DNA of 64,000 nt from Acidimicrobiia bacterium (GTDB lineage: Bacteria > Actinomycetota > Acidimicrobiia > Spongiisociales > UBA5794), in NCBI GenBank assembly GCA_003235475.1, contig QJWC01000031.1, forward strand, positions 1,042 through 65,041, in the 5' to 3' direction. The position numbers were made by a program, and so were the translations under genes. Each line of letters starts with the position of its first letter. The first letter of the stretch is position 1. Below, piece after piece: positions 17,630 through 64,000 of this stretch. The notes beneath the pieces were generated by a model. The model saw only the letters and a list, made by a program, of their open reading frames with translations. It did no database searches and was not told where the DNA came from.

Positions 17630-17638
17630 ACTAGAACA

Positions 17639-17671: not shown

Positions 17672-17694
17672 TTACCAAACAATGTGTCGCTCGA

Positions 17695-34085: not shown

Positions 34086-34162
34086 GGCGAGGACAACGCG
34101 CCTCTCAGACTCCGGCACCCCCACCGGGAGCCGACAAGCGAAGGAAGCGGATGGGAGCACCC

Positions 34163-35518: not shown

Positions 35519-35547
35519 TCCGACAAGGGCATCCCGAGGAAGCGTCG

Positions 35548-39566: not shown

Positions 39567-39622
39567 GGCCACCAGCCGCTGAGTCGTTTGGTACCTTTGT
39601 TTCCAGGGAAGGGAGAGGAAGC

Positions 39623-43273: not shown

Positions 43274-43415
43274 CACACGCACAATAGATGCCTTCCAAGT
43301 GGGTCCTCCTGGTGATCCCCAGTCCGGAGCCACGAGGTAGGGTGTGTCCACTCACTCGACGTGCGCCATGGGTATTGCGGCGCAGTCGGTGACCCGACGA
43401 TGCGAGGTCGCTCCG

Positions 43416-47842: not shown

Positions 47843-47898
47843 CCAGCGCAAGTTGCCGATCGGGCGGTGACCCCCCTGCATCGCGCCCCGTGCGATGC

Positions 47899-47983
47899 CG
47901 TCCCCCTTGAAGGGGGGACGTGATACCTCCGAATCGCCCCCTTTCAAGGGGGACGGCAAGCGTCAGCGAGCCAGGGGGATCAC
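47899..47983. repeat. Intergenic palindromic repeat: one extra hairpin plus one full copy of a roughly 50-nt element also present, inverted, at 62649-62698
   Basis: Hairpin CGTCCCCCTTGAAGGGGGGACG at 47899-47920. The core CGCCCCCTTTCAAGGGGGACGGCAAGCGTCAGCGAGCCAGGGGGATCA at 47935-47982 aligns by eye with the reverse complement of 62649-62698 (about 40 of 48 positions). Confidence 0.7.
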
Positions 47984-47987
47984 CTCG

Positions 47988-49976
47988 CTAGAGGGACGGC
48001 GTGCTCCACACGATCTCGGACACATCGACGGGGTCGGTGATGCCCTTCAACTCCTTCGGACCGAGGGCCCGGATCTCGTGGCTGGTCTCGACGCCGTCGA
48101 GCGTGGACGTGCTGATGTGGATGTGGCCCCCGTCTGCCGACGACATGATCCTCGCCGCGATGTGGACCCCTTGCCCCGAGTAGTTCGCGTCCCGCTCGGT
48201 GGCTTCCGACGTGTGGATACCGATGCGCACCTCCGGTGCGAATCCGTGGTCGCGTCGGTGCGTGGCCAACCGCTTCTGGACGACGACAGCCCAGTCGATG
48301 GCGGCATCGGGGTCGGTGAACGCCACGAAATAGCCATCTCCTGTGTGGCTGACGACCTCGCCGCCGGCATCATCGATGGTCTCGTCCATCAGCCGGTCGT
48401 GCCAGCGGATGAGGTCCTCCCACGCCGAGTCCCCGATGAGGCCGATGAGGTCCGTGGACGTGACGATGTCGGTGAAGACGAACGTCCTCGTCACGCGATC
48501 CCCCTTCGAGTCGTGCGGGGACTCACCGAGAAGTTCGCTCAGACGATCGGCATCGCGGTCGGCACCGAGCTTGGCCATAACCGTGCGCGCAGCCCGGTAT
48601 TCCATCGCCGCGCCCTCCGCATCGCCCTGCGCTTCGAGTGCCGCCCCGAGCAGTGCCCGGGCGCGTGCACTCTCGTACGGCATGTCGATGTCCCTCCACT
48701 GGCGCCATGCATCGCTCAACATGGTGACGGCCGCGTCGACGTCGCCCTTGGCGAGATCGATCGCTCCCCGGCACGTTGCCGCGAACGCCGTCCACGATGC
48801 GGCGCCATAGTCATTGGCGACCTCGTCGAGTTCCTTCCACGCCTGCTCTGCCCGCTCGACGTCTCCTGCGGCAAGGGCGATGTCCACCATCGAGGGAAGG
48901 AGTCGTGCGCGCTGCAACCTCGAGGACCTTCCGCTGTCGGCGAGGGGAATCCTGTCGAGGGCGCGTGTCAATGAGCCAAAGGCGCCCTCGACGTCTCCTT
49001 GGTCCATCATGAGGAGGGATCGGCCCGGCTGACCGCTGAGGCCGTATTCGTATGCCTTGTCGAACGCAGCCTGGGCTCCCTTGAGATCGCCCCTCCGGCG
49101 GCGCGACTCACCGATCTCGTACTGGGCGAATCCGATGCCGTCGAAGAGCTGGAACTTCTGAAGCTCGATGCACGCCTGTCGCGCTGCCTTCTCGGCTTCA
49201 GGGAAGTGGCCCTTCAGCCGCTGGAGTTCTGCACGATGGACCTGGCAGACACCCGGATACCCGCCCACGGCCTTCCCGCGCATCCACCGCTCAGCCTCCT
49301 CCGTCCACTCCGACGCTCGCTTGAACTCCCCGAGGTCCCGACACAGCGCGATCGTGTTGCAGTAGACGTCGCCCGTCGAACGCAGATCAGATCGACCGGA
49401 CAGCGCTGTGAGCGTTGCGGCGTCGGCGAGACGCAGGGCCTCCTCCCAATCGCCCTGTTGGCTCTTCGAATATCCGGTGAAGCTCGTGGCAAGCGCCTCG
49501 ATCCCTGCGTCACCTATGCCCACGGCCTTCTCACGTGCCTCGGCAAACAACGAGATCGCGCCTTCCCAGTCGCGCTCTCGCATCGCCATGATGCCTCGGA
49601 ACACGCGGAGCCAGCCGTGCGCGAAGGACTCGGGCTGCCCATCGAGCAGCGCTTCGGTCTTTGCCATCCATCCGCCCGCGACGGCCATCGCCTGCCGACG
49701 AGCTGCGAGATAGGCGAGCTTCGCGGTCACGCGGGCTGCCTCGACTGGGTTGCCCTCGTGCTCGAATGCGGCGGCCGCCTCCTCGAACGCGACGAGCGCG
49801 TCGTCTGCATCGCCAGACCACCATGCCGCCTCACCCCACAGGTCGAGACCGAGCGCGTCGAGCTCCGATGCGTCGTGAGGGCCGTCGAGAAGCTCCCGTG
49901 CCTCGGTCCAATCCGACCGTTCCACTGCGAGACGGGCCAGCTCCAGGATGTCCTGATTCACCATGCGTTCTGCCAT
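47988..49976 (-). CDS. TPR-repeat region with C-terminal class III adenylate/guanylate cyclase domain
   Basis: About 470 aa of TPR-like helical repeats, then FVFTDIVTSTDLIG, SHTGDGYFVAF, IGIHTSEA. Confidence 0.8.
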   Translation of the reverse strand: MAERMVNQDILELARLAVERSDWTEARELLDGPHDASELDALGLDLWGEAAWWSGDADDALVAFEEAAAAFEHEGNPVEAARVTAKLAYLAARRQAMAVAGGWMAKTEALLDGQPESFAHGWLRVFRGIMAMRERDWEGAISLFAEAREKAVGIGDAGIEALATSFTGYSKSQQGDWEEALRLADAATLTALSGRSDLRSTGDVYCNTIALCRDLGEFKRASEWTEEAERWMRGKAVGGYPGVCQVHRAELQRLKGHFPEAEKAARQACIELQKFQLFDGIGFAQYEIGESRRRRGDLKGAQAAFDKAYEYGLSGQPGRSLLMMDQGDVEGAFGSLTRALDRIPLADSGRSSRLQRARLLPSMVDIALAAGDVERAEQAWKELDEVANDYGAASWTAFAATCRGAIDLAKGDVDAAVTMLSDAWRQWRDIDMPYESARARALLGAALEAQGDAEGAAMEYRAARTVMAKLGADRDADRLSELLGESPHDSKGDRVTRTFVFTDIVTSTDLIGLIGDSAWEDLIRWHDRLMDETIDDAGGEVVSHTGDGYFVAFTDPDAAIDWAVVVQKRLATHRRDHGFAPEVRIGIHTSEATERDANYSGQGVHIAARIMSSADGGHIHISTSTLDGVETSHEIRALGPKELKGITDPVDVSEIVWSTPSL

Positions 49977-50027
49977 GTCATCGGCTCCCGAATCTACCGA
50001 CAGGATTCCCGCCCTGTAGCGGACGGC

Positions 50028-53000
50028 CTATTTCTCCGGGTAACCGGGGTGGGCGACGAAGGTGCCGGCGTCGGACTTCACTGGAATGTGCGGCATCGAC
50101 TCCTGTACGCCCTTGAGGATCGTGTACATCACCGCCGCCGGCTCGAGCGAGAGTGCCTCACCGTCCGCTGCTGCGACCGACGCCCCCACCAGCGCCAGAT
50201 CGTGGTCGAGCGTCGCGGTGAACGACGGGGACGCGTACTCGACCTTGCCGTTGAGGGAGATCCGGTGGGTCTCGCCATCGAAGCGTCCCTCCATCACCGA
50301 GCCTTCGAACATCATGAACGCGTTCGAGTGTTGCGCCTCGAAGTCCTCCCGGTCGAGGTACAGCCGCGGCTTGTCCTTGTAGGGCTCACCAGACGTGGGG
50401 CACGCGGTGACGCAGTTGCCGCACTCGTTGCAGAAGTCGGTCAGCACGGCGATCTGGTACTGCTGGCCGGCCGTGAACCGGGAGGTCTCGCCCGCGACCA
50501 CCGCACCGTCGGCGACCGACAGGGATGGCAGGTCGGCCGTCACCGGGGACATCTCGTAGGTCATGAGCGCCATGTTCGGGCACACCCCGACGCACAGGCT
50601 GCAGATCTCATGGCAGTCGAGGCACCGGGAGGCTTCGGCCATCGCCTCCTCGGCCGTGTACGACAGCACGGTCTCGTCGAAACCATCGCGCTGGTCGAGG
50701 GGCGAGAACCGAATGGGAACGCGGTACTCGCGCCGTGAGCGTCGAATCACCATGTTGTGCAGGTCGATGGGACGCTCCTCTTCGGCCGGCTTGACCCTCG
50801 GCGAGTCGTGCTTCGCCATGATCGCTTCCGCAACCCGCTTGCCGTCTGCGGCAGCCTTCACGATCGATGACGGCCCGTCGGCTGCGACGTCGCCGCCTGC
50901 GTACACGCCGGGGATCGACGACTCGTAGGTCGCAGGATCCACCGCGATGTAGCCGCGGTTCGTGAGGTCCGGCACCTCGTCCCCGAAGAAGTCGAGCACC
51001 GAGTGCTGTGAAATGGCGAGGATCAGGGTGTCGAGCTCGAGCTCGAACTCCGAGTCAGGCACGTCGAAGGGGATCTTGCGGCCGGAGTCGTCCCGGTCGC
51101 CGCGGTACTCCGTCCGAGTGCAGATCAGGCCGGCGAGCGTGCCGTCCTCGACGTGGAGGCCGTGTGGCTTGGCGAGCTCGACGATGTGGATGCCCTCTTC
51201 CCTGATCGCGTGGATCTCCTCGGGGTCTGCCGGCATCTGGTCGACCGTGCGCCGGTAGACGAGGTAGACGTCCTCGGCTCCGACCCGCAGGGCCGACCGC
51301 ACACAGTCCATCGCCGTGTCACCCGCACCGATGACACCGACCCGCTTGCCGATCGCCACCGGACGCTCCTCCCGTACGGACCGAAGGAAGCCGATCCCGT
51401 CCATGACGCCGTCCGCGTCCTCGCCCGGCAGGTTCAGCTTCTTGGCGAGCTGGGCACCAACCGCCACGAAGACGTAGTCGAACCCGTCGGCTCGGAGGCC
51501 TTCGAGTGTGAAGTCCTCCCCCGCCTTCTGGCTGTACCGGATCTCCACGCCGAGGTCGTCGAGGACCGCGAGATCCTGGTCGATGTCCTTCTGTGGCAAG
51601 CGATACGAGGGGATCGCGCCGCCCACCATTCCGCCCGCGTAGGGGTGTGCTTCGAAGATCGTCACGGCGAAACCGGCGTGCGCGAGTTCCTGGGCGGCAG
51701 CCAATCCAGCCGGTCCCGCACCGATGATCGCCACGCTGACGCCGGTCGACGGGTTGGTCGTGAAGAGCACCGGCACCTCTTCGTGCTCCATGATGAACCG
51801 CTTCATGTGCCGGATCGCGAGCGGCTGGTCGAAATGCGTTCGGATGCAGGTGTTCTCACATAGGTGATCGCACACTCGCCCGAGGACGGACGGCAGCGGG
51901 TTGTCCTCACGAGCGAGCTCGACTGCTTTGAGGAAGTTGCCCTCGCGGACCGCGTTCATGTACTGCGGGACCTTCTGGTCGACAGGGCATTCGTCGACGC
52001 ACGGCGCTTCGATGCAGTCGAAGAAGTCGAGGGTTCTCGGGGTCTTCGACCGATCCATGCGGAACGAGTGCTTCTGGTAGCGCCAGTCCGTGCGGACATC
52101 CTCGGCGTACTGGCGAAGATTCACGCGGGCGAGCGCGTTCGTCACGAGTCGGGAGATCTCCTTCGAGCGCATCGCATCGAACCCGGCGGCCGCTGACCAG
52201 GAGTCGACGGCATCGAGCAGTCGGCCGTTGCCGTCGTGCGCGCGCAGCGCCGACAGGATGCCTGTGCAGTGCTCCGCCGTGAGGTCGAGGCCGCTCGCTG
52301 TCAACGAGGCGTATCGCAAGAGCACAGGGAACTCCTCGATCGCATCCTGTTGGAGGGCTGTCTTGCACATGAAGTCCGTCGTGTCGACGGCACCGACCTT
52401 GTCGTAGGCGGCCTCGACGTTCTCCATGTACTGGAGCATCCGGAGGTACCCGCCTGACTTCAGCAGGTCCGAGCACACCGTGATGGTCTTCATCCCGCCG
52501 CGCAGGAGGTCGGCGACATTGAAACAGTCGGCTCCCCCGGCGAACGAGAGCATCAGGTCTCCGCGGAACTCCTCCGAGATCCGCGATGCAAGGTTCGTCG
52601 TGACAGCGTGGAGCGCCCTGCCAGACAGGTACATCATCTCGTCCTTGTCGAACTCTGTCCGCCAGTTCTCCACCTCGAGCGTGTTCGTCAGCTTCAGCCC
52701 GAACGTCAGGTTGCGCTCTGCCGCGACCCGGCGCAGGTTGTGGAACATCGGCACAGCGTCGACGTACATCAAGTCGTGCCCGAACGCTTCATCGGGAATC
52801 GGGATGTCGTCGAACCCGAGCCCCTCGTTGATGATCCCCCGAACGCGGTCGGCGCCGAGCAGGGTCGGGTTGCACTTCACGGACGTGTGCAGGCCCCGTT
52901 CCTCCATCAGGTACAGGGAGATCCTCTCGATCTCATCAGGAGGGCAGCCGTGCATCGTGGAGAGCGTGATCGTGTCGGAGAGCTGCCTCGGGATGTCGAT

Positions 53001-53585
53001 GTCGCGGACCTCCGGGTAGTACTCGGCCACGATGTCGATGTACTTCGGCAGGTACTCGCTCGCATCAGCCATCACGTCGAAGTACCACTGCACGTTCGGC
53101 TTCAGCATCCCTTCGAGGTTGTACCCGACGGACATGTTGAAGACCATGCCTGGCCGCTCGCCATGCCAACCGAACTTGTGGTGGAGCGCGTGGATCAGCA
53201 CCCATGCCCTGAGGTACTCGTCGAACGACTGGAAGACCTTGAGTTCCTGGGACCACTCGACGTTGTAGCCCTCGTCCTCGACGTCGATGCACGGCTTGTT
53301 GACGTCGAGCTCGTCGAGCGTCTGGATCGTCTTGAGTTCGATGAGGCGGGCCCCGACGAGCCACGACACGATGATGTTCTGGGCCATCTGCGTGTGGGGT
53401 CCTGCGGCCACCCCGAAGGGTGTGTCCATCTCGACGCCGTACTTCGTGATGCGATACGGATGGTCTGGGCTCGGGACGAAGAAGGCGGAGCGCGGGACGT
53501 TGAAGAGTGAGCCCTTTTCGTCGAGCTCGGTGAAGACCCACTTCGTGAGCTGCTCCATCGAGATCGGGTGGAACCTATCGGACAT
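50028..53585 (-). CDS. ygfK: YgfK-type multidomain Fe-S flavoprotein (DPD-like TIM barrel, GltD-like FAD/NAD(P) domains, ferredoxin clusters)
   Basis: The N-terminus FHPISMEQLTKWVF...FGVAAGPHTQMAQNIIVSWLVGARLIELKTIQ...NKPCIDVEDEGYNVEWSQE...LSTMHGCPPDEIE tracks my recollection of E. coli YgfK. VAIIGAGPAGLAAAQEL and VGVIGAGDTAMDC are the GltD-like motifs. Ferredoxin motifs: CLDCHEICSLCVGVCP and CNECGNCVTACP. Confidence 0.85.
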   Translation of the reverse strand: MSDRFHPISMEQLTKWVFTELDEKGSLFNVPRSAFFVPSPDHPYRITKYGVEMDTPFGVAAGPHTQMAQNIIVSWLVGARLIELKTIQTLDELDVNKPCIDVEDEGYNVEWSQELKVFQSFDEYLRAWVLIHALHHKFGWHGERPGMVFNMSVGYNLEGMLKPNVQWYFDVMADASEYLPKYIDIVAEYYPEVRDIDIPRQLSDTITLSTMHGCPPDEIERISLYLMEERGLHTSVKCNPTLLGADRVRGIINEGLGFDDIPIPDEAFGHDLMYVDAVPMFHNLRRVAAERNLTFGLKLTNTLEVENWRTEFDKDEMMYLSGRALHAVTTNLASRISEEFRGDLMLSFAGGADCFNVADLLRGGMKTITVCSDLLKSGGYLRMLQYMENVEAAYDKVGAVDTTDFMCKTALQQDAIEEFPVLLRYASLTASGLDLTAEHCTGILSALRAHDGNGRLLDAVDSWSAAAGFDAMRSKEISRLVTNALARVNLRQYAEDVRTDWRYQKHSFRMDRSKTPRTLDFFDCIEAPCVDECPVDQKVPQYMNAVREGNFLKAVELAREDNPLPSVLGRVCDHLCENTCIRTHFDQPLAIRHMKRFIMEHEEVPVLFTTNPSTGVSVAIIGAGPAGLAAAQELAHAGFAVTIFEAHPYAGGMVGGAIPSYRLPQKDIDQDLAVLDDLGVEIRYSQKAGEDFTLEGLRADGFDYVFVAVGAQLAKKLNLPGEDADGVMDGIGFLRSVREERPVAIGKRVGVIGAGDTAMDCVRSALRVGAEDVYLVYRRTVDQMPADPEEIHAIREEGIHIVELAKPHGLHVEDGTLAGLICTRTEYRGDRDDSGRKIPFDVPDSEFELELDTLILAISQHSVLDFFGDEVPDLTNRGYIAVDPATYESSIPGVYAGGDVAADGPSSIVKAAADGKRVAEAIMAKHDSPRVKPAEEERPIDLHNMVIRRSRREYRVPIRFSPLDQRDGFDETVLSYTAEEAMAEASRCLDCHEICSLCVGVCPNMALMTYEMSPVTADLPSLSVADGAVVAGETSRFTAGQQYQIAVLTDFCNECGNCVTACPTSGEPYKDKPRLYLDREDFEAQHSNAFMMFEGSVMEGRFDGETHRISLNGKVEYASPSFTATLDHDLALVGASVAAADGEALSLEPAAVMYTILKGVQESMPHIPVKSDAGTFVAHPGYPEK

Positions 53586-53600
53586 CGCCTCTCCCCTCCC

Positions 53601-54623
53601 TCACAGCCTGGCGTGGAGTCGTGCAGCCTGTTCCCTGGCGACCGCCCGGATCTCGTCTGCATCGACCCGTGTCGGCTTGCCGTCCGCGAGGATCGTCTCA
53701 CCGTCGACCTTCACCTCGAGGGGTCGGATGCCGGGCGTGAACGCGATGTGCCATGGATCCATGGGGTCGTATGACCACGTCACCTCGTCGTCTCGGGCTT
53801 CCGGCACGATGTCCCATCCCGTCTCCAGCCATCGCCACGCAGGGTCGGGGCCGACCGTGATGTCGACCGATCGTTGCATCACATAGGCGAGCCTGAAGGA
53901 CTCGAGGACGTTTCCGCCGATGCCGTCGGTTCCGAGGGCGACGGGGTTCGAGAACCGTGCCGGGTTCGCATACCCGACGGCATTGTTCAAGTTGGACATC
54001 GGATTGTGGAGGATCGTGCCCCTCAGCGTGTGGTCCGTCGGCAGGTGGACGCAGTGGCTCAACAGCCAGTCGTCGGTCGTGAGCCCTTCGAGCCTGTTCG
54101 GTGCGTCGATATCCCCGATTCCTTCACACACGTGGATGTGGACGCCGACGCCGAGGTCCGCGGCGAGCCCGGCTGCCGCTTCGAGGGAATCGTCCGAGCA
54201 GGTGAACGCGGCATGGATGCCGACCATCCCGTTGCCGCCTGCCTTGATGAACCGTTCGTTCTCCTCGAGGCCCCGCTTCGCTCCGTCGGCGCCATGCCGA
54301 TCCGTGATCCCGTACGCGACGAGGAGCCGTACGCCGACCTCGGCACACGCCTCGGCGATCACGTCGAGGCTCCCCTCGATCGCATTCGGCGACTCGTGGT
54401 GGTCGACGATGGCGGTGGTTCCGTTCTCGAGCGCTTCGAGGGCGCCGAGGAGGGCGGACGCCCTGATCATGTCGAGGTCGAGCGCCGTGTCGAGCCTCCA
54501 CCAGACCTGTTCGAGGACTTCCTGGAAATTCGAAGCCACCTTCGGGGGCGCCGGCATGCCGCGGGCGAGCGCCGAGTAGAGGTGGTGGTGGGCGCAGACG
54601 AGGCCCGGAGTGGTTGCGGTCAT
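53601..54623 (-). CDS. ssnA: SsnA-like amidohydrolase lacking the usual N-terminal beta-sandwich segment
   Basis: ATGA overlap with the upstream stop. The protein opens directly on the metal motif MTATTPGLVCAHHHLYSALARG, then GIHAAFTC, VHIHVCEG, LSHCVH, GTDG. Confidence 0.7.
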   Translation of the reverse strand: MTATTPGLVCAHHHLYSALARGMPAPPKVASNFQEVLEQVWWRLDTALDLDMIRASALLGALEALENGTTAIVDHHESPNAIEGSLDVIAEACAEVGVRLLVAYGITDRHGADGAKRGLEENERFIKAGGNGMVGIHAAFTCSDDSLEAAAGLAADLGVGVHIHVCEGIGDIDAPNRLEGLTTDDWLLSHCVHLPTDHTLRGTILHNPMSNLNNAVGYANPARFSNPVALGTDGIGGNVLESFRLAYVMQRSVDITVGPDPAWRWLETGWDIVPEARDDEVTWSYDPMDPWHIAFTPGIRPLEVKVDGETILADGKPTRVDADEIRAVAREQAARLHARL

Positions 54624-57232
54624 GCGCCGACCGGCTGGTGAACACTGAACGGGAGCTGGTTTCGGCGGATGCCGTCGACCTCGTAGAACGCGCCCGCAAC
54701 GGCACCGGCGGTCGGCACGAGCCCGATCTCACCCACGCCCTTGACGCCGTACGGAGACCTCGGCTGCGGTGCTTCGACGAGGACCACCTCGATCTCAGGA
54801 ATGTCCTTCGGGCGGAGCACACCCAGGCTCCGCAAGGTCATGTTGGTCGGCATCGCCTGCTCGTCGGTCGGGAACTCCTCGGTGAGGGCGTACCCGAGCC
54901 CCATGTGCACGGCACCCTCGACCTGCCCCTCACAAAGGGTTGGGTTGATCACGCGCCCGACGTCGTTCACAGCGACGACCTTCTCGATTGTGCCGGTCTC
55001 CCGATCGGCGATCACAAGCTGCCCCCCGTATCCGAACGCCGAGTGGATGATCGGGTTCTCGACGCCCTCTTCGAGCGAGTTCGTCCAATCGACGACGTAC
55101 TCACCGACGTAGTCCACGTTCGGCTTTCGGCCGTCTTCGATCGCAATGCGGCATGCGTCCTGCACGGAGCCAGCCCCCATGAGCGTGCCACGGGATCCGG
55201 TGGTCTGTCCTGCACCGAGTTCCCGGCTCGTGTCGACTTTGACGGTGATCTTCTCGGGTGCGACGTCGAGTTCCTCCGCAGCGACCTGCATTGCCACGGT
55301 GTGAACGCCCTGACCCATCTCGGTCCAGCAGTGGCGGACCTCGACGTTGCCATCGTCATCGAAGCGGACGACAGCCTTCGCAATTTCGACGAATCCGTTC
55401 CCGAGCCCCGAGTTCTTGAGGGCGAGGCCGAGACCGACAGCCTTGCCAGCCGCCTTTGCGTCGTCGTAGTAGGGCTTGATGGCGTCGAGGCACTGCCGGA
55501 TCCCGAGGCAGCCGTCGTCCATGACCTGGCCCGGACCCCAGGTATCGCCAGGCTTCACGATGTTACGGTTCCGCATCTCCCAGGTGCTGATGCCGACCTT
55601 GTCGGCGAGGCGGTCGAGCATGCCCTCGGTCGCGAACTGCGCCTGGTTCGCCCCGAAACCTCGGAACGCACCGCACACCGGGTTGTTCGTGCGAACCGCA
55701 ACTGCGGACACGTCGATGTTCGGGACCGTGTACGGCCCGCTCGCGTGGCCGGCGGCACGCTCCAGCACCTTCATCCCGACCGACGCGTACGGCCCCGAGT
55801 CGCCGATCATCCTCGCCTTGTAGGCGACGAGCTTCCCGTTCTCGTCGCAGCCGGCGGTCGCTTCGATCCGAATCGGGTGCCGCTTGGCATGCATGAGAAG
55901 CGACTGCTCGCGCGTCAGGGTGCACTTGACCGGCCGGTTGAGAAGGTGGGCTGCGAGCGCCGCGTGCGCCTGGTTCGACATGTCCTCCTTGCCGCCGAAC
56001 GCACCACCGTTCGAGACGAGTTCGACCGTCACCTTGTCCGTGTCGACGCCGAGAACCGCCGCGATCTGGTCGCGGTCGTCCCACACACCCTGACCACCCG
56101 AGTACACGTGCAGCGCGCCGCCTTCCAGCGGCACGGCGAGCGTCGACTCTGGCTCGAGGAACGCGTGCTCAACCCGCTGGGTGTGGAAGGTCTCGGTCAC
56201 CGTGTGCGCGGCGTCAGCGAGGGCGAAATCGACATCGCCGCGGCTGTAGACGGACTTCGAGAGCACGTTGCCGTCGAGTCCCCACACGGCGTCCTCGTCC
56301 GATGCGAGGGCGACGTCGGGATCCGTGTAGACCTTGAGCTCCTGGTACTCGATGTCGACCAATCCGGCTGCCATACGAGCCACTTCGACGTCGTCGGCGA
56401 CCACGACCGCCATCACGTCCCCGAGGTATGAGGTCCGCTGGCCGGGGCCGATCATGACCGGCCAGTCCTTGTGGATGATGCCGACGCGCTGGTCCCCCGG
56501 AATGTCCTGTTGGGTATACACGGCGACGACGCCGTCGACGTCGAGCGCACGAGACGTGTCGATCGAGAGAACGTCCGCCCTAGCGAAGTCGGCGAGGCGC
56601 AGCCCTGCGTGGAGCATGCCGGGAATGCGGATGTCGTCGACATAGCCGCGGTCGCCGAGGGCCAGCTCCTGGGCTTCGTACTTCTTGCCGCGCTCGCCGA
56701 TCTTCGTGGGCAGGCTCGGGGCCGTGATCTCGACCTCGTCTCGGAGCATGTCGATCGCGTCGAAGATCTTCGTGTACCCAGTGCACCGGCAGAGGTGGGC
56801 GCCGAGGCGGCCGGCGGCGGTCTCGCGCGTCAGGTCCTTGCCCTTCTGGTCGATCAGCGCCTTGGTCCTGACGAGGATCCCGGGGGTGCAGAAGCCGCAC
56901 TGGAGGGCACCGGTCGCCGCAAAGGCATCTGCATATCGGTCGCGCTCCGCGGGATCGAACCCCTCGAGGGTCGTGACCTCCTTGCCGGCGGCTTTCTCCA
57001 TCGACACGAGGCAGCTTTGGATCGGCTTCCCGTCAAGGAGCACCGTGCATGCGCCGCACTGCCCGGAAGGCGCACAGCCGTCCTTCGGGGAGGTGACGTC
57101 GAGCTCTTCGCGCAGCGCGCGCAGGAGGTGGGGGTGGGACGCCGACACCTCGACTGGCGTCCCATTGACCACGAGGCTCGTCATGTCGCTCGTTCCGGGC
57201 GCGGCGGTGGTCGTGGCGTCCATACCTTGCAC
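54620..57232 (-). CDS. xdhD: Fused [2Fe-2S]-molybdopterin hydroxylase (XdhD / aldehyde-oxidoreductase-Mop architecture, xanthine dehydrogenase family)
   Basis: GTG at 57232, 8 nt after GGGAGGGG. Fe-S motifs: CAPSGQCGACTV, CGFCTPG, CRCTGY. Mo domain: GGAFGGKEDM, FRGFGANQ, KGVGEIGLVP. There is no FAD domain. Confidence 0.85.
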   Translation of the reverse strand: MQGMDATTTAAPGTSDMTSLVVNGTPVEVSASHPHLLRALREELDVTSPKDGCAPSGQCGACTVLLDGKPIQSCLVSMEKAAGKEVTTLEGFDPAERDRYADAFAATGALQCGFCTPGILVRTKALIDQKGKDLTRETAAGRLGAHLCRCTGYTKIFDAIDMLRDEVEITAPSLPTKIGERGKKYEAQELALGDRGYVDDIRIPGMLHAGLRLADFARADVLSIDTSRALDVDGVVAVYTQQDIPGDQRVGIIHKDWPVMIGPGQRTSYLGDVMAVVVADDVEVARMAAGLVDIEYQELKVYTDPDVALASDEDAVWGLDGNVLSKSVYSRGDVDFALADAAHTVTETFHTQRVEHAFLEPESTLAVPLEGGALHVYSGGQGVWDDRDQIAAVLGVDTDKVTVELVSNGGAFGGKEDMSNQAHAALAAHLLNRPVKCTLTREQSLLMHAKRHPIRIEATAGCDENGKLVAYKARMIGDSGPYASVGMKVLERAAGHASGPYTVPNIDVSAVAVRTNNPVCGAFRGFGANQAQFATEGMLDRLADKVGISTWEMRNRNIVKPGDTWGPGQVMDDGCLGIRQCLDAIKPYYDDAKAAGKAVGLGLALKNSGLGNGFVEIAKAVVRFDDDGNVEVRHCWTEMGQGVHTVAMQVAAEELDVAPEKITVKVDTSRELGAGQTTGSRGTLMGAGSVQDACRIAIEDGRKPNVDYVGEYVVDWTNSLEEGVENPIIHSAFGYGGQLVIADRETGTIEKVVAVNDVGRVINPTLCEGQVEGAVHMGLGYALTEEFPTDEQAMPTNMTLRSLGVLRPKDIPEIEVVLVEAPQPRSPYGVKGVGEIGLVPTAGAVAGAFYEVDGIRRNQLPFSVHQPVGA

Positions 57233-57273
57233 TCTACAAACCCCTCCCGGGCGTCACGACAGCGATACCTCTC

Positions 57274-58248
57274 CTACATCGTGAGGGCCATGACGGCCTT
57301 CTGCGCATGCAGACGGTTCTCGGCCTGGTCGAACACACGGCTCCAGCGGCCATCGATGACCTCGTCGGCCACCTCGATGTTGCGGTCTGCGGGGAGCGGG
57401 TGCATGTAGATCGCATCCTCGTCCGCCATCTCCATGCGCCTCGCGTCGACGATCCAGTCCTTGTACTGCGCCGAAATCTTCGCTGATTCCTCATGGTCAG
57501 ACGTGGTGAGCATCGAGCCCCATGCCTTGGCGTAGACGACGTCGGCACCGACCATGCCCTCTTCGAAGTCCTCGACGATCTCGAAACTTCCGTGGGCGGC
57601 GCGGGCGTTCTCCTCTGCCTGCGCAACGATCTCCGGCATCAGCTTGAACTCCGGTGGACGGGTCAGGCGCACGTTTGCCCCGTACCGCGTCATCAGCAGG
57701 ATCACGCTTTGGGGGACGCTGATCGGCTTCTGGTAGCTCGCCGCGTACGCGTAGCTCATGTTGATCGTGAGCTTCGACGGGTCGCCCTTCTGCTCGATGA
57801 TCGTGAGCAGGTCGGCGAGCGCCTGGAACGGGTGGTACCAGTCGCACTGCATGTTGAGTACGGGTGTTCGGCTCGCCTCGGCAACCGCGCGGATGTAGTC
57901 GTTGCCGATTCCCCAGTCGACGTTGCGGATGGCGATGCCGTCGTTGTAGCGGCCGAGGATCTCCCCGATCTCCTTCCACGTGTCGCCGTGGCCGATCTGG
58001 GTGGTGGTCGAGTCGAGGAACATCGCATGTCCGCCGAGCTGCGCCATGCCTGCCTCGAAGGACGCACGGGTGCGGGTCGAAGAGAAGAAGAAGAGCATTG
58101 CGAGCACCTTGTCGCGGAGGAGGGCATGGTCCTCACCGAGCGCACGGCGGCGCTTGAGGTCGAGCGCGATGTCGAGGACGGTGTCAAGTTCGTCCTTCGT
58201 CCACTCTTGTGTGGTGATCATGTCCCGTCCGTGCAGATACGTCTGCAT
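57274..58248 (-). CDS. ygeW: YgeW-like carbamoyltransferase (ATCase/OTCase superfamily)
   Basis: FFFSSTRTRASFEAG, HPFQALADL, HPLPADR. The segment SYQKPISVPQSVILLMTRYGANV resembles the SYGKPLSVPQGIIGLMTRFG segment I recall from E. coli YgeW. It is shorter (324 aa) than my recollection of YgeW. Confidence 0.7.
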   Translation of the reverse strand: MQTYLHGRDMITTQEWTKDELDTVLDIALDLKRRRALGEDHALLRDKVLAMLFFFSSTRTRASFEAGMAQLGGHAMFLDSTTTQIGHGDTWKEIGEILGRYNDGIAIRNVDWGIGNDYIRAVAEASRTPVLNMQCDWYHPFQALADLLTIIEQKGDPSKLTINMSYAYAASYQKPISVPQSVILLMTRYGANVRLTRPPEFKLMPEIVAQAEENARAAHGSFEIVEDFEEGMVGADVVYAKAWGSMLTTSDHEESAKISAQYKDWIVDARRMEMADEDAIYMHPLPADRNIEVADEVIDGRWSRVFDQAENRLHAQKAVMALTM

Positions 58249-58261
58249 GCGTGCTCCTTTG

Positions 58262-59026
58262 CTATTCAGGGTTGGGTTTCCGCCTGATCAGGCGGAAACG
58301 GAGAAGGTCGTCCCGGAAGAACGACGTTGCTCTGACAAGTGGCGTGTTGTCCTCGTCGAATCCGATCTCATCGAAGCACACGGCTGCCGTGCCGACCGGG
58401 ACGCCGAGCAACCCCGCGGTGTGCTCGTCGAGCTTGACGGGAACGATCTCGGAGAGGAAGTAACTGAGCCGTCGATCGGAGTGCCGCTCGAGGAACGTGT
58501 AGAGCGGCTCGCTTCCGTCGTAGGTCATGGCCTCGTCGGTGAGCCTGGCAGACGGGATCCGGTTGACCGCGACTGCCACGGGCAGGTCGTCGCCTCTGAA
58601 GACCTTCTCCATCACGACCAGCTTCGTGCCCACTGGGATGTCGAGCTCCTCGGCGATGGCCTTCGTCGCCTTCTCCTCATCGATGCTGATGACATCGACG
58701 GAAGGCTCGTACCCGTGTGCGGTGAGGACGTCCTCGTAGGACCAGATCTCCTCAAGCCGTGACTTGATCTGGAGGCCGTGCTCGTTGATGAACGTGCCCG
58801 AACCCTGCCTGCGGTAGACGACGCCCTCGTTGGCGAGGCGGGACAGCGCGTCCCGAACGGTGGTCCGGCTGACCCCGAGTTCGGCGGAGAGCTCAACCTC
58901 AGGAGGGATCCGCCCGTCCTCGAACTCGCCGTCTGCGATCCGCTGCTTGAGGTGCGCCTTCACCTGTTCGGTGAGTGACGGGCTGCGAGAGATCACGATG
59001 CGGCGGCCTTCCGGTCGGTCGGACAA
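58262..59026 (-). CDS. GntR-family (HutC subfamily, UTRA effector domain) transcriptional regulator
   Basis: The wHTH reads LPPEVELSAELGVSRTTVRDALSRLANEGVVYRRQGSGTFI. The stop lies only 13 nt from the ygeW-like start. The track start is a TTG at 59026 with no RBS. A GTG at 58996 preceded by GGAAGG may be the real start. Confidence 0.85.
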   Translation of the reverse strand: MSDRPEGRRIVISRSPSLTEQVKAHLKQRIADGEFEDGRIPPEVELSAELGVSRTTVRDALSRLANEGVVYRRQGSGTFINEHGLQIKSRLEEIWSYEDVLTAHGYEPSVDVISIDEEKATKAIAEELDIPVGTKLVVMEKVFRGDDLPVAVAVNRIPSARLTDEAMTYDGSEPLYTFLERHSDRRLSYFLSEIVPVKLDEHTAGLLGVPVGTAAVCFDEIGFDEDNTPLVRATSFFRDDLLRFRLIRRKPNPE

Positions 59027-59044
59027 CCAATTTCGCTGGTTGTC
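59022..59044. promoter_or_regulatory. Perfect inverted repeat, candidate GntR operator
   Basis: GACAACCA (59022-59029), ATTTCGC, TGGTTGTC (59037-59044). It lies just downstream of a minus-strand TTGGGC-18-TATGAT promoter-like pair (59079-59050). Confidence 0.4.
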
Positions 59045-59100
59045 GGTTCATCATACCAATTGTGGATGAGAACGCCCAACACGGCAAAACCGCGCTTGCG

Positions 59101-59129
59101 TTGTGTGAACGCGCGACCACCGGCATAAT
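59101..59129 (+). promoter_or_regulatory. Candidate sigma-70-like promoter for the three-subunit hydroxylase operon
   Basis: TTGTGT (59101-59106), 17 nt, CATAAT (59124-59129), about 45 nt before the GTG at 59174. It overlaps a GCGTT-N5-AACGC inverted repeat (59098-59112). Confidence 0.35.
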
Positions 59130-59173
59130 CGGACATGGTGCAGCCAAGGAGCGCCGACGGGAGTTGATCTTCA

Positions 59174-59974
59174 GTGGAATTCGTCGCCGCCAAAGACCTT
59201 GACGAGGCACTCGTAGCGAAGGCGAACCATCCTGACGCCGAGTTCCTCGCAGGCGGCACCGATCTCATGGTGGAGGTCAACCTGGCCCATCACCGGCCGT
59301 CTTCCGCGATCGGCCTTCGCCGCGTCGACGAACTGCGCGAGATGACCGATCTCCGCATCGGGGCAGGCGTGACCTGGGCGACCCTCGAGTCCCATCCCCA
59401 CCGAGCGCTCGCCCAAGCGGCCAGGACCGTGGGGTCTCCCCAGATCCGCGCTGCCGGGACGCTCGGGGGAAACATCGGGACCGCGAGCCCTGCAGGCGAT
59501 GGGCTCCCGTGGATCGCCGCGCTCGACGGCACGATCGAGCTTCGATCGAAAGACAGGGGGACCCGCGTGATGCCATGGAGGGAGTTCTTCGTCGGCGTGA
59601 AGCGCACCGCGATCCTGCCTGACGAAGCCATCGTCGCTGTGCGGATTCCGGAGGACACACCGGCCCGTCAGGAGTTCGCCAAGATCGGCGTGCGTAACGC
59701 GATGGTGATCTCGACCGTCTCCTGCGTCGTCACCCATGGCGACAACGGGACCACGGTGGCCCTCGGCTCCGTTGCCCCGACCCCGATGCGCGCAACGCGG
59801 GCCGAGGAGATGATCAACGCCGAGAAGAACCCGTCCGAAGCGGCGCTCGCAGAGTTCGCCCGCATCGTCTCCGAGGAGGTCCGCCCCATCACCGACCACC
59901 GGTCAACCGAGTCCTACCGACGACACGGCGCAGGAGTGCTCGCACGCCGACTGCTCGAGAGGTGCCTCTCGTGA
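59174..59974 (+). CDS. Molybdenum hydroxylase FAD-binding (medium, CoxM/XdhB-like) subunit
   Basis: LAGGTDLMVEVN, GTLGGNIGTASPAGD, ITDHRSTESYRRH. Confidence 0.88.
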   Translation: MEFVAAKDLDEALVAKANHPDAEFLAGGTDLMVEVNLAHHRPSSAIGLRRVDELREMTDLRIGAGVTWATLESHPHRALAQAARTVGSPQIRAAGTLGGNIGTASPAGDGLPWIAALDGTIELRSKDRGTRVMPWREFFVGVKRTAILPDEAIVAVRIPEDTPARQEFAKIGVRNAMVISTVSCVVTHGDNGTTVALGSVAPTPMRATRAEEMINAEKNPSEAALAEFARIVSEEVRPITDHRSTESYRRHGAGVLARRLLERCLS

Positions 59975-60435
59975 TCGTGTCCCTCACCATCAACGGCGAA
60001 CCGAAAACCGCGACGATCGGCGGGTTCGAGAGTCTGCTGCGCGTCCTGCGCGACGACCTCGGCCTGCTCGGCAGCAAGAACGCGTGCGAGCAGGGCGAAT
60101 GCGGGTCGTGCTCCGTGGTTCTCGACGGGGAGGTCGTGTGTGCCTGCCTCGTGATGGCCGCAGACTGCGAGGGTTCCGACGTCACCACGGTCGAGGCGTA
60201 CGGCACCGGCGACGACCTGCACCCCTTCCAACAGGCCATGCTCGACGAACACGGTGTCCAGTGCGGCTTCTGCACCCCCGGCATCGTCGTGACGGGGATC
60301 CGACTGCTCGAAGAGAACCCAACGCCGACCGAGGACGAGATCCGCGAGGCCCTGTCCGGGAACATCTGCCGATGCACGGGCTACGGCGGGATCCTGAGGG
60401 CGTTCGATCGGCTCGCAAAGGAAGGCACCGAATGA
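59971..60435 (+). CDS. Molybdenum hydroxylase [2Fe-2S] (small, CoxS-like) subunit
   Basis: CEQGECGSCSV, CGFCTPG, CRCTGY. GTG at 59971 lies in a GTGA overlap with the upstream stop. The track start, GTG at 59962, is the alternative. Confidence 0.88.
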   Translation: MIVSLTINGEPKTATIGGFESLLRVLRDDLGLLGSKNACEQGECGSCSVVLDGEVVCACLVMAADCEGSDVTTVEAYGTGDDLHPFQQAMLDEHGVQCGFCTPGIVVTGIRLLEENPTPTEDEIREALSGNICRCTGYGGILRAFDRLAKEGTE

Positions 60436-62651
60436 CGACCCGCACGAAGCCGCGCGTCCGTGGTGGCATCGGCGAGGACGTCGTTCGTCCGGACGGCATC
60501 CCGAAGCTGACCGGCAACTTCGCCTTCGCCTCGGACCTCGTCGCAGACGGGATGCTGTGGGCAGCAACGCTCCGCAGCCCCCACGCCCATGCGGTCATCG
60601 TCAGCCTCGACACCACGCCTGCTCTCGCGATCCCGGGCGTGCGTGCCGTCATCACCCAGGACGACGTGCCAGGGCATCCTCTCTTCGGGCAGGAGAAAGC
60701 CGACCAGCCCGTCCTTTGCGACGGCGTTGCCCGATATTGGGGCGAGCCCGTGGCAGTGGTCGCGGCCGACGATCCGGAGACCGCTCGCCGGGGTGTTGAG
60801 GCGATCGCAATCGAGTGGGAGCCTCTTGCCCCCGTCTCCGACCCCGAGGCGGCCGAGAACTCGGATCACATCTTCAGAAGGATCAACGTGCGCAGGGGAG
60901 ACCTCGGCGCCAAGGGCGAGGTTGTCGTCGAGGGGTACTACGAGATCGGAACCCAGGATCAGGCGCCACTCGGAACGGAGGCCGGGCTTGCGATTCCCGA
61001 TGGCGAGGGCGGCATCGACCTGTGGGTCACGTCACAGTGGGTCCACATCGACCACGGTCAGATCGTTCGCTGCCTCGACCTTCCTGATCACATGGTGCGA
61101 TGCCATCCAGCGGGAATCGGTGGTGCGTTCGGAGCCCGCGAGGACATGTCGATGCACGTCCATATCTCCCTGCTCGCGCTGATCACGAGGCGCCCGATCA
61201 AGATGGTCTACGACAGGTCGGAGTCCTTCGTCGGCCACGTGAAGCGCCACTCGGCGCGTATGTGGTACCGGCACGAGGCGACTCCTGAGGGCCGCCTCGT
61301 CAGGGTGACGGCCAAGGTGATCCTCGACGGCGGTGCGTACATGCACACGAGTGCCGCAGTGACCGGCAACGCCGCCTTCTTCGCCGTGGGCCCCTATGTG
61401 TGCGACAACGTCGAGTTGGACGTGGTGTCCGTCAAGACGAACAACCCGCCTGCTGGCGCGATGCGCGGGTTCGGTGTCGTCCAGACGTGCTTCGGGGCCG
61501 AGTCACAGATGGACCGGCTCGCCCAAGAGCTGGACATGGAGCCCCTCGCCCTCCGAAGGTTGAACGCCCTGGAAGCCGGTCAGCCGTTCTCGACCACCGG
61601 ACAGATCATCGAAGGCGCCTTCCCGACGACGGCCATCATCGATGCGCTCGAGTCATTTCCGCTCCCCCCGCCCCTCGAGTCGGACGACCCGGTGCACCTC
61701 CCTGGCGGGACGGGCCTGACGACACCCCGATCGGCGGTCGTCAGGGGCATCGGTTATGCGCTCAGCGCGAAGAACCTCGCGTTCTCGGAAGGGTTCGACG
61801 ACTACGCAGAGGCACGCGTCGTCCTCACACCGGTGGGCGCCGAGGTCCACACCGCGGCGATGGAGGTCGGCCAGGGTTTGGTCACTCTCCTCCAGCAGAT
61901 CGCCCGAACGGTGCTCGGCACGGGACACGTCGCCGTGGTCTGGGACGACACCTCGCAGATCGGCTCCGCAGGCTCGACCTCCGCAAGCAGGCAGACGCAG
62001 ATGACAGGTGGCGCAGTCCACGCAGCAGCGGTCGCCCTCCGCGACAAGGTGCTCGACGACCACGGTGCGGACGAGCTCAGGGAGGACGGTGCGTACCGTG
62101 ACGGCGAGCGGGTGGCGACCCTCGAAGAGATCTGCGCATCGGGGCCCGTGGACCACTGGATTCGCTTCCGGCATCCCGAGACCGAGGAGCCGGACGAGAA
62201 CGGCCAGGGAAACCTCCACCCCGGCTACGCCCTCGCCGGCCATCGGGCGGTCGTCGACGTCGATCCGGAGCTCGGCCTCGTCCGGGTCGTGCAGATCGAC
62301 ACGGCGCAGGATGTCGGCAAGGTGCTGAATCCCAAGGCGTTGATGGGACAGGTCGAGGGCGGCATCCTGCAAGGTGTCGGCCTCGCAACGATGGAGGAGC
62401 TCGTCATCGACAAGGGAATCATCCGGAATCCCACCTTCACCGACTACCTCCTTCCCACGTCACTCGACGCACCCCACGTCAACGCGGTGTTCATCGAAGA
62501 GGGCGACCACTGGGGACCGTTCGGCGCGAAGGGCGCTGGCGAACCCCCGACGATCAGCTCGACCCCAGCCGTCGCAGCCGCTATCCGGCAGGCGACCGGC
62601 AAGGCGCTCACCAGGGTCCCCATACTCCCCCAGGACATCACAGGCACCTGA
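60432..62651 (+). CDS. Xanthine-dehydrogenase-family molybdopterin-binding (large) subunit
   Basis: ATG at 60432 in an ATGA overlap. GGAFGAREDM, MRGFGVVQ, AKGAGEPPTIS. The 5' part of the 60084 track ORF overlaps the Fe-S gene out of context. Confidence 0.88.
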   Translation: MTTRTKPRVRGGIGEDVVRPDGIPKLTGNFAFASDLVADGMLWAATLRSPHAHAVIVSLDTTPALAIPGVRAVITQDDVPGHPLFGQEKADQPVLCDGVARYWGEPVAVVAADDPETARRGVEAIAIEWEPLAPVSDPEAAENSDHIFRRINVRRGDLGAKGEVVVEGYYEIGTQDQAPLGTEAGLAIPDGEGGIDLWVTSQWVHIDHGQIVRCLDLPDHMVRCHPAGIGGAFGAREDMSMHVHISLLALITRRPIKMVYDRSESFVGHVKRHSARMWYRHEATPEGRLVRVTAKVILDGGAYMHTSAAVTGNAAFFAVGPYVCDNVELDVVSVKTNNPPAGAMRGFGVVQTCFGAESQMDRLAQELDMEPLALRRLNALEAGQPFSTTGQIIEGAFPTTAIIDALESFPLPPPLESDDPVHLPGGTGLTTPRSAVVRGIGYALSAKNLAFSEGFDDYAEARVVLTPVGAEVHTAAMEVGQGLVTLLQQIARTVLGTGHVAVVWDDTSQIGSAGSTSASRQTQMTGGAVHAAAVALRDKVLDDHGADELREDGAYRDGERVATLEEICASGPVDHWIRFRHPETEEPDENGQGNLHPGYALAGHRAVVDVDPELGLVRVVQIDTAQDVGKVLNPKALMGQVEGGILQGVGLATMEELVIDKGIIRNPTFTDYLLPTSLDAPHVNAVFIEEGDHWGPFGAKGAGEPPTISSTPAVAAAIRQATGKALTRVPILPQDITGT

Positions 62652-63948: not shown

Positions 63949-64000
63949 CAGTCCTTGAACAAGGCGAGCGATTCGGCGATGTCGTCGACGCCGATCCCCG
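63936..64000 (-). CDS. 3' end of an unidentified CDS running in from the right edge
   Basis: My reverse-strand reading gives ...GIGVDDIAESLALFKDWCEA, then TGA at 63938-63936. It overlaps the glycerate-kinase start by 13 nt. Too short to assign. Confidence 0.4.
   Translation of the reverse strand, partial: GIGVDDIAESLALFKDWCEA

Follow-up and report, generated by a model that had tools for sequence, protein, structure and literature searches.

A five-gene operon on contig QJWC01000031.1 of an Acidimicrobiia bacterium probably encodes the regulated "upper" half of the reductive urate pathway, which runs via 2,8-dioxopurine (yanthine), in an Acidimicrobiia version, as judged from family models, motifs, and gene neighborhoods. 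The operon lies on the minus strand at positions 50028-59026 of the 64-kb window (the whole stretch of DNA analyzed, 64,000 nucleotides with a GC content of uniformly ~65%) and codes for a GntR/UTRA regulator, a carbamoyltransferase (CT1), a fused 2Fe-2S/molybdenum hydroxylase, a short SsnA-type amidohydrolase (short SsnA), and a YgfK-type Fe-S flavoprotein (Table 1). The five co-oriented open reading frames (ORFs) were tightly packed, and their coordinates and spacings, including the 13-nt gap and the ATGA overlap reported in a first-pass annotation, were confirmed by an ORF check. GC at the third codon position was 0.84-0.88 in all five ORFs, a level that genuine genes should show at a genomic GC of 65%, and each had strong Pfam and NCBIfam matches. 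The same annotation had assigned the operon to the ygfK/ssnA/ygeW purine-associated gene set of a high-GC actinobacterium, which was borne out by the family matches and motifs for the gene set and, for the host, by the nearest relatives being metagenome-assembled genomes (MAGs) labeled Acidimicrobiia of the phylum Actinomycetota.

The pathway and its enzyme families are already known. Urate is dehydroxylated to 2,8-dioxopurine by XdhD-YgfM in Escherichia coli (Li et al., 2025; Life Metab, PMC12507026) and by the FAD-less selenium-dependent DOPDH "XdhAC" in Clostridium sporogenes, a reversible fused Fe-S/Mo enzyme that works without NAD(P)H (Liu et al., 2025; bioRxiv 10.1101/2025.04.24.650524). 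The ring is then reduced by YgfK with NAD(P)H, specifically NADPH according to Liu et al. (2025), and opened by SsnA to ureidomethyl-hydantoin, which HyuA converts to 2,3-diureidopropionate. YgeW phosphorolyzes one ureido group, YqeA turns the carbamoyl phosphate into ATP, YgeY takes off the other ureido group, and YgeX converts diaminopropionate to pyruvate (Li et al., 2025; Liu et al., 2025). E. coli YgfK is active with NADPH alone in vitro (Li et al., 2025; Liu et al., 2025), product was seen in one set of assays only once SsnA had joined YgfK (Li et al., 2025), and the two studies disagree on which ureido group is attacked by E. coli YgeW. The reactions of YgfK, SsnA, and YgeW, considered unresolved in the first-pass annotation, were all assigned biochemically in these two 2025 reports.

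Enzymes of the five-gene operon

The hydroxylase passed the NCBIfam model TIGR03311 ("selenium-dependent XDH", for xanthine dehydrogenase) with 846.7 bits against a cut-off of 830.45 and aligned to positions 2-841 of the 848 in the model. This model and that for YgfK were both defined on purine clusters with ygfK and ssnA in genomes positive for selD (PMC2276186). Pfam identified Fer2_2, a/b-hammerhead, and both MoCo-binding domains, with ~25 residues joining the Fe-S and Mo parts, and found no FAD domain. This domain order matched the "XdhD architecture" described at first pass, whereas the identity of the enzyme as XdhD was rejected from its TIGR03313 score (192.8 versus 1101.9 bits) and from an alignment with E. 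coli XdhD and XdhA, in which it lacked the XdhD insertion bearing Glu606, a residue implicated in orienting urate (Li et al., 2025; PMC12507026). A likeness to C. sporogenes, a strict gut anaerobe with selenium dependence shown (SelD, YqeBC), lay in the FAD-less fused Fe-S/Mo hydroxylase of ~850 amino acids (aa), TIGR03311 having been built on such proteins, and model and architecture suggest orthology to DOPDH. The hydroxylase may likewise depend on selenium; homologues of YqeB and YqeC were not found in the window or the 10 kb beyond it, and no search was made for SelD.

Hydroxylase residues E416 and R492 aligned with rat XDH E802 and R880, pointing to a purine-type active site that was counted in favor of a role in urate breakdown. 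A GVGE motif (E835), placed by motif search and not by alignment to a solved XDH, sits at what we take to be the position of the catalytic Glu (bovine E1261). The best PDB match for the active-site segment was the Se-dependent nicotinate dehydrogenase 3hrd (141.8 bits versus 89.7 for rat XDH), and the nearest solved full-length structures were Desulfovibrio aldehyde oxidoreductases, also FAD-less fusions. No YgfM was encoded in the operon, and the sole FAD subunit nearby was that of a divergent three-subunit XDH, its gene starting on the opposite strand 148 nt from the regulator ORF and 178 nt from the called regulator start at 58996. The hydroxylase was FAD-less as previously described, while the corollary that YgfK is the obvious electron conduit was not sustained with an FAD-subunit gene at this distance.

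The YgfK-type flavoprotein exceeded the cut-off of the NCBIfam equivalog TIGR03315 (891.6 versus 835.3 bits), in agreement with its first-pass name. It contained Fer4_20 and Pyr_redox_2 domains, shared 43% identity with E. coli YgfK over its N-terminal domain and 32% over the remaining sequence, and its central part matched the structures of dihydropyrimidine dehydrogenase and GltD. An N-terminal FMN-type domain followed by a GltD-like Fe-S/FAD/NADPH module was present, and the protein appears to be the equivalent of the NADPH:2,8-dioxopurine oxidoreductase (DOPOR). A PDB sequence search returned no solved structure of either SsnA or YgfK.

SsnA families gave the best NCBIfam matches of the amidohydrolase, with scores below the curated cut-offs (256 versus 444 bits for PRK07203 and 235.5 versus 455.5 for TIGR03314) because the protein is truncated, the match being limited to model positions 58-333. 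The first-pass designation "SsnA-like" was therefore upheld by best family and signature motifs and not by the cut-offs. Short SsnA was 31% identical to residues 56-438 of E. coli SsnA and retained HxH, WWRLD, DHHxSP, SN(L/M)NNxVGY, and ALGTDGIG as in the E. coli protein, while lacking its N-terminal ~53 residues and its C-terminal strands, the latter taken by analogy with related amidohydrolases to be the beta-sandwich accessory domain. Relatives of canonical length (~440 aa) were 40-50% identical over the core. A low-confidence AlphaFold2 model, used just to confirm the amidohydrolase barrel fold, matched barrels of the TrzN/TM0936 group (pLDDT 64 from a shallow alignment of 14 sequences, with residues 200-270 unreliable). 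SsnA had already been noted in Actinomycetota and Chloroflexota (Li et al., 2025), and this clade was probably missed in the published IPR017700-based network since it scores below the TIGR03314 cut-off.

In the proteins P0219 (1169 aa), P0023, P0147, P0265, and P0190, the hydroxylase or its C-terminus was predicted to be joined to short SsnA; these may be Rosetta-stone fusions, or gene-calling or frameshift artifacts at the ATGA overlap. Together with the strong conservation of short SsnA described below, the predicted fusions fit a tight physical coupling, without proving it.

CT1 contained the Pfam domains OTCace_N and OTCace and scored below every NCBIfam cut-off, including those for YgeW (172.8 versus 500 bits for TIGR03316 and 186.2 versus 453 for PRK07200). 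A function as ornithine carbamoyltransferase (OTCase) was rejected from the scores (269.6 versus 306 and 255.1 versus 280.85 bits), the presence of HPLP in place of HCLP, and a Lys for the Asp of DxxxSMG. The protein was 38% identical to E. coli YgeW and shared with it the motifs QCD-x2-HPxQ, (W/Y)AYxxSYxKP(L/I)SVPQ, and K-x-W (for the OTCase D-x-W) that are absent from ArgI and PyrB, while it lacked three insertions and the C-terminal tail of the ~396-aa full-length YgeW. By its motifs it is fairly described as "compact YgeW-like", so that the first-pass naming held at the level of motifs and failed at the level of the YgeW cut-off. CT1 orthologues in relatives were 64-94% identical.

Second operon, candidate shared operator, and recurrence of the triad

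The source population was recovered by exact-protein look-up in Joint Genome Institute (JGI) metagenome 3300027985, in which contig Ga0259481_10000866 was 99.98% identical to window positions 55749->43601 and contig Ga0259481_10006489 (L008) was 99.77% identical to positions 64000->55337; both contigs end inside or near the cluster. L008 carried a tight seven-gene operon, co-oriented with the five-gene operon and extending ~7 kb past window position 64000, that encodes a second carbamoyltransferase (CT2) resembling aspartate carbamoyltransferase (ATCase), a carbamate kinase, two pyridoxal phosphate (PLP) enzymes of the PALP type, a 2-hydroxyacid dehydrogenase, an aminotransferase, and a glycerate 2-kinase (Table 1). 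The first-pass statement that only four core genes are present was therefore true for the window alone, as an effect of where it ends, and the description of the locus as a minimal or irreducible core was overturned by the second operon and by relatives keeping the genes for CT2, carbamate kinase, and the two PLP enzymes beside the others. The second operon makes the locus a split cluster of the ordinary kind, an outcome that the first-pass annotation had itself named as refuting its proposal. That HyuA, YgeY, and YgeX are missing was in turn real, both at the locus and across the clade, which makes the cluster a genuine variant, though not the one first proposed. YgeY had no homologue in the window or in L008 1-9900, and in place of a YgeX proper only a weak similarity (22%) to the ThrC-like PALP enzyme was detected.

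The dehydrogenase-aminotransferase-glycerate kinase trio (L008 7621-11197; window 62704-64000 and beyond) ended the second operon, and may hint that a three-carbon (C3) product is routed through hydroxypyruvate and glycerate instead of pyruvate. The trio accompanied the triad of hydroxylase, short SsnA, and YgfK in just 0-3 of 39 loci, making a glycerate-directed end a speculation specific to this genome.

Between the two operons, and diverging from the regulator, lay a complete three-subunit PucCDE-like XDH (59174-62651, plus strand) with best NCBIfam matches to pucD (688.6 versus 783.65 bits), pucE, and XdhB, every one below its cut-off. The regulator itself combined a GntR winged helix (PF00392, 74.2 bits) with a UTRA domain (PF07702, 85.5 bits), was called by JGI at L008 14905-15639, and belonged to the HutC subfamily as first annotated. 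Its orthologues, 53-61% identical, were found beside carbamoyltransferases in seven related loci (L001, L040, L055, L058, L078, L083, and L085). A pattern TCATCATACCAAT between the regulator and the divergent XDH had one match in the window compared to 0.02 expected by chance. The AT-rich 13-mer TCATCATACMAAT, a candidate HutC-type operator, occurred at two sites in ~74 kb, namely at window 59048-59060 and at L008 2900-2912, 20 nt upstream of CT2, and in relatives kindred CATGTTGTATG...ATACCAAT motifs were conserved between the GntR and CT2 genes. Since its sites had been seen before the pattern was chosen, it is suggestive only. The presence of the 13-mer at both operon starts makes a common regulon plausible, in which one HutC-type GntR protein would probably govern both operons via the shared operator. 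A promoter and terminator scan of 47800-59400 gave results at or below chance and was uninformative for a high-GC organism.

Comparative analysis used one genome per GTDB species and yielded short SsnA relatives in at least 591 genomes, the best 80 loci of which were examined and came from MAGs labeled Acidimicrobiia/Actinomycetota and Chloroflexia/Limnocylindria. Neighbors were counted in the 39 loci whose 10-kb flanks were complete. Of these, 36 encoded YgfK and 30 the fused hydroxylase, followed by CT2 (19), PALP enzyme 2 (18), CT1 (17), an XDH-type FAD subunit within 10 kb of the triad (16), carbamate kinase (13), YqeC (7), and YqeB (6), while HyuA and YgeX each occurred once and YgeY in none. 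YgfK was immediately downstream of short SsnA in 50 of the 63 loci with sufficient downstream sequence. Among all 80 loci, HyuA was beside the triad in three, YgeX in two, YgeY in one, YqeC in ten, and YqeB in nine, and the presence of these canonical genes in some members ties the clade to the published pathway. Recurrent neighbors in relatives further included genes for Bmp/PnrA nucleoside ABC transporters, adenosine deaminase, and guanine-deaminase-like proteins.

Database clusters related to short SsnA at 81-89% identity numbered more than 120, and almost all were exactly 340 aa long. Across the two phyla, represented by Acidimicrobiia- and Chloroflexia-labeled MAGs (L010-L089 compared to the window), it was 78-86% identical, as against 46-50% for the adjacent hydroxylase and 59-70% for YgfK. 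This conservation is unusually strong for an amidohydrolase and could reflect tight complex formation or a separate horizontal transfer.

In several Acidimicrobiia relatives, YqeB and YqeC, which mark the selenium cofactor trait, were encoded beside the triad with up to 47 and 36% identity, respectively, to the E. coli proteins. Within the 10-kb flanks, YqeB/YqeC or XdhD-like neighbors were seen in L022, L030, L031, L035, L046, L052, L063, L074, and L087, and an additional XdhD-like hydroxylase with a YgfM-like FAD subunit was beside the triad in L030, L035, L046, and L087; none of these genes was in the window.

Table 1. Features of the five-gene operon, the divergent xanthine dehydrogenase, and the second operon (window coordinates unless L008 is given).
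Feature	Location	Strand	Remarks
GntR/UTRA regulator	58262-59026	minus	likely start 58996, as called by JGI (244 aa); 244-254 aa; 13 nt to next gene
CT1 carbamoyltransferase	57274-58248	minus	324 aa; 41-50 nt to next gene
Fused 2Fe-2S/Mo hydroxylase	54620-57232	minus	probable ATG start 57223; 867-870 aa; ATGA overlap with next gene
Short SsnA-type amidohydrolase	53601-54623	minus	340 aa; its ATG overlaps the hydroxylase TGA; 15 nt to YgfK
YgfK-type Fe-S flavoprotein	50028-53585	minus	1185 aa; last of the five
Candidate operator TCATCATACCAAT	59048-59060		between regulator and divergent XDH
XDH FAD subunit	59174-59974	plus	Pfam FAD_binding_5/CO_deh_flav_C
XDH 2Fe-2S subunit	59971-60435	plus	Pfam Fer2_2
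XDH Mo subunit	60432-62651	plus	Pfam MoCoBD_1/2
CT2	L008, second operon	co-oriented	316 aa; ATCase-like, TIGR00670 262 versus 237; PyrB Arg229 replaced
Carbamate kinase	L008 3887-4828	co-oriented	313 aa; TIGR00746 (arcC) 376.3 versus 358.25; 52% identical to YqeA
PALP enzyme 1	L008, second operon	co-oriented	427 aa; ThrC-like
PALP enzyme 2	L008, second operon	co-oriented	486 aa; weakly CysK-like
2-Hydroxyacid dehydrogenase	L008, second operon	co-oriented	384 aa; glyoxylate/hydroxypyruvate-reductase-like
Aminotransferase	L008, second operon; 3' end at 63936-64000	minus (co-oriented)	397 aa; class I; continues past window end
Glycerate 2-kinase	L008, second operon end; 62704-63900	minus (co-oriented)	398 aa; DUF4147/MOFRL; Pfam and NCBIfam matches; last gene of second operon

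Candidate pathway and competing explanations

In the proposed pathway, the PucCDE-like XDH would oxidize hypoxanthine and xanthine to urate, and the TIGR03311-type FAD-less hydroxylase would strip the 6-oxo group from urate to give 2,8-dioxopurine. YgfK would reduce the ring with NADPH, and the barrel-only SsnA, whose translation is coupled to that of the hydroxylase, would hydrolyze the ring open and thereby pull the unfavorable reduction forward. Phosphorolysis of one ureido group of the opened product, presumably the side-chain (citrulline-like) group, would fall to CT1, while the ATCase-derived CT2 would probably remove the other, presumably the alpha (N-carbamoyl-amino-acid-like) group, with carbamate kinase converting the carbamoyl phosphate to ATP and the two PLP enzymes probably standing in for YgeX on the C3 amine or diamine.

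Compared to the E. coli cluster (ygeW-ygeX-ygeY-hyuA-yqeA ... ygfK-ssnA-ygfM-xdhD), the locus has in common YgfK, the SsnA type beside YgfK, a YgeW-like enzyme, and a linked conventional XDH, and the carbamate kinase of its neighboring operon is 52% identical to YqeA. It differs in that XdhD-YgfM is replaced by a hydroxylase of 24% identity without YgfM or the Glu606 insertion, SsnA lacks the beta-sandwich domain, and HyuA, YgeY, and YgeX give way to an ATCase-like second carbamoyltransferase and two other PLP enzymes. Regulation in E. coli is by the sigma54 activator YgeV and here by a HutC-type GntR protein; yqeB, yqeC, and mocA were not found near the cluster, unlike in E. coli, and the host is a free-living high-GC member of the Acidimicrobiia. 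With C. sporogenes the locus further shares YgfK as the enzyme acting next along the route and the logic of carbamoyltransferase plus carbamate kinase for ATP. A Chloroflexota variant has SsnA clustered with a putative F420-dependent luciferase-family reductase (Li et al., 2025) and was matched by three surveyed loci, in which a luciferase-like (possibly F420-dependent) gene was beside short SsnA and the hydroxylase was missing (e.g., L033 8854-10011), whereas the window and most surveyed loci have YgfK. The reductive pyrimidine pathway of PydA (dihydropyrimidine dehydrogenase) and PydB (dihydropyrimidinase) follows a like logic, NADPH/Fe-S/flavin reduction of a uracil-like ring preceding its opening by an amidohydrolase, but the locus described here differs in domain order, in its purine substrate, in the coupling to a Mo hydroxylase, and in the phosphorolysis of ureido groups, for which the pyrimidine pathway uses beta-ureidopropionase.

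Several observations weigh against a reductive urate pathway at this locus. The hydroxylase is just 24% identical to E. coli XdhD and is without the Glu606 insertion, and the SsnA and YgeW memberships are both below curated cut-offs. A hydantoinase for the second ring opening was not found in ~74 kb (window plus L008 1-9900, with E. coli and clade HyuA queries), nor in the same ~74 kb were homologues of YqeB, YqeC, MocA, and YgfM, SelD not having been searched for. An electron donor of low potential that could serve urate reduction was not evident, and the host is probably aerobic, with an O2-dependent flavin monooxygenase encoded in the window at 2609-3901, whereas descriptions of the pathway to date are of an anaerobic one. 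Finally, the two sites that the operator pattern "finds" are those from which it was derived.

The same enzyme families could instead act on another N-heterocycle, such as an oxopurine isomer, an 8-oxoguanine-derived product, a pterin, or an oxidized pyrimidine, with the two carbamoyltransferases working on its ureido products. This is the strongest of the alternatives and still an unlikely one: the SsnA and YgeW scores under the cut-offs, the distance of the hydroxylase from XdhD (24% identity), ThrC-like and CysK-like PLP enzymes in the place of the missing HyuA, YgeY, and YgeX, a dehydrogenase/aminotransferase/glycerate kinase end suited to a C3 product other than pyruvate, and a free-living, non-gut habitat are all consistent with it. 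Against these stand the equivalog-level matches of YgfK and the TIGR03311 hydroxylase, the retained residues aligning with XDH E802 and R880, the conventional XDH linked in 16 of 39 loci together with the purine transporter and deaminase genes linked in relatives, the canonical HyuA, YgeX, and YgeY beside the same triad in some clade members, and the occurrence of the glycerate-directed trio with the triad in only 0-3 of 39 loci. The hydroxylase might alternatively run oxidatively, for example from a mono-oxopurine to 2,8-dioxopurine, passing electrons via Fe-S centers to YgfK, so that hydroxylation and ring reduction would be redox-coupled and could dispense with an external low-potential donor. 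The DOPDH of C. sporogenes is reversible and makes no use of NAD(P)H, neither a ferredoxin nor an FAD partner is encoded in the operon, a complex is suggested by the predicted fusions and by the fixed order hydroxylase-SsnA-YgfK, and a probably aerobic host makes low-potential urate reduction less obvious; but nothing in this context points to mono-oxopurine substrates, the idea as a whole is speculative, the neighboring conventional XDH would supply urate and not mono-oxopurines, and E. coli YgfK works in vitro on NADPH alone, so that an oxidative hydroxylase appears improbable.

A self-sufficient irreducible core of five genes, comprising hydroxylase, ring-opening amidohydrolase, reductase, and carbamoyl transfer and with YgfK feeding electrons to the FAD-less hydroxylase, is very hard to reconcile with the data. 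It would account for the failure to find HyuA, YgeX, YgeY, YqeA, YqeB, and YqeC homologues inside the window, for a hydroxylase without an FAD domain, and for the strongly conserved triad order with its predicted hydroxylase-SsnA fusions. The second operon past the window end, however, is co-oriented, probably shares the operator, and supplies CT2, carbamate kinase, and two PLP enzymes; relatives have the same genes next to their triads; a pathway with carbamoyl transfer but lacking carbamate kinase and C3 processing is incomplete; and just 148 nt separate the regulator ORF from a gene for an FAD subunit. The locus consequently does not supply the irreducible core hoped for at first pass, and the upper half of a reductive urate pathway remains the preferred reading.

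A more far-reaching proposal, put forward tentatively and judged rather doubtful as a whole, is that many Acidimicrobiia and Chloroflexota with a free-living and probably aerobic habit (at least 591 species genomes) share a hydantoinase-free, "double-phosphorolytic" form of the reductive urate pathway. The triad would form a complex channeling the unstable reduced 2,8-dioxopurine, CT1 and CT2 would remove both ureido groups, and carbamate kinase would yield as many as 2 ATP from each purine, with no need for oxygen.

Surrounding genes and wider meaning

A tblastn search of the window with every E. coli cluster protein gave no match for HyuA, YgeX, YgeY, YqeA, YqeB, YqeC, MocA, or YgfM, the same result being obtained with the clade's own orthologues, and elsewhere in the window there was neither a carbamate kinase nor a PLP lyase, hydantoinase, M20 peptidase, YqeB, or YqeC. 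Candidates for a HyuA analogue were rejected by their family assignments, namely a HutF-like protein at 18976-20169 (HutF-like family, 518 versus 362 bits) and two PRK08204-like amidohydrolases at 31588-33039 and 38256-39566, while a "hydantoin racemase" Pfam match at 12325-13026 was an Asp/Glu-type amino-acid racemase.

A Bmp/PnrA-type nucleoside ABC transporter (13999-18768, minus strand) adjoined the HutF-like formimidoylglutamate deiminase, and in 7-9 related loci a transporter of this type immediately preceded the hydroxylase on its upstream side. A single uninterrupted ORF at 36936-39566 (plus strand) combined a BPD_transp_2 ABC permease with the second PRK08204-type amidohydrolase (496 bits versus a cut-off of 391) and may be a true fusion or two in-frame genes without a stop between them; the PRK08204-like amidohydrolase at 31588-33039 was on the far side of the same transporter operon (33036-38100). 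Two ORFs with gene-like codon-position GC, at 39257-41728 (plus strand, 823 aa) and 41873-43351 (minus strand, 492 aa), had no Pfam or NCBIfam matches. Downstream of YgfK were genes for a TPR-adenylate cyclase protein, a ferritin-like protein, an alpha/beta hydrolase, and a BisC/TorA-like Mo enzyme. The first of these, a TPR/MalT-like adenylate/guanylate cyclase protein (47988-49976, minus strand), lay 51 nt downstream of YgfK and accompanied the triad in none of the 39 full-flank relatives, and a second cyclase-domain protein was encoded at 22669-23988 (minus strand).

The reductive urate pathway, worked out in 2025, was presented as an anaerobic, mainly host-associated, and selenium-dependent trait, and no description of an environmental or Acidimicrobiia variant was found in the searchable literature. 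The compact triad is very strongly conserved in hundreds of Acidimicrobiia and Chloroflexota genomes from soil, sediment, and water, and the lower pathway proposed for it differs in having two carbamoyltransferases with carbamate kinase, other PLP enzymes, and no hydantoinase or M20 peptidase nearby. Within the searchable literature, the barrel-only SsnA clade, the compact YgeW, the paired carbamoyltransferases replacing YgeY, and the near-absence of HyuA appear to be new, as does the abundance of the variant in free-living, probably aerobic lineages. If the proposed pathway is true, a naturally minimized SsnA and a compact YgeW would be on hand for structural work, and the lower pathway would suggest a way of raising ATP yield relevant to engineered uricolytic probiotics. 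The pathway would have a wider ecological range, changing the view of purine nitrogen recycling in oxic environments, and if ureido removal is indeed double-phosphorolytic, it would be a major environmental route to purine nitrogen and energy instead of one specific to anaerobes or the gut.

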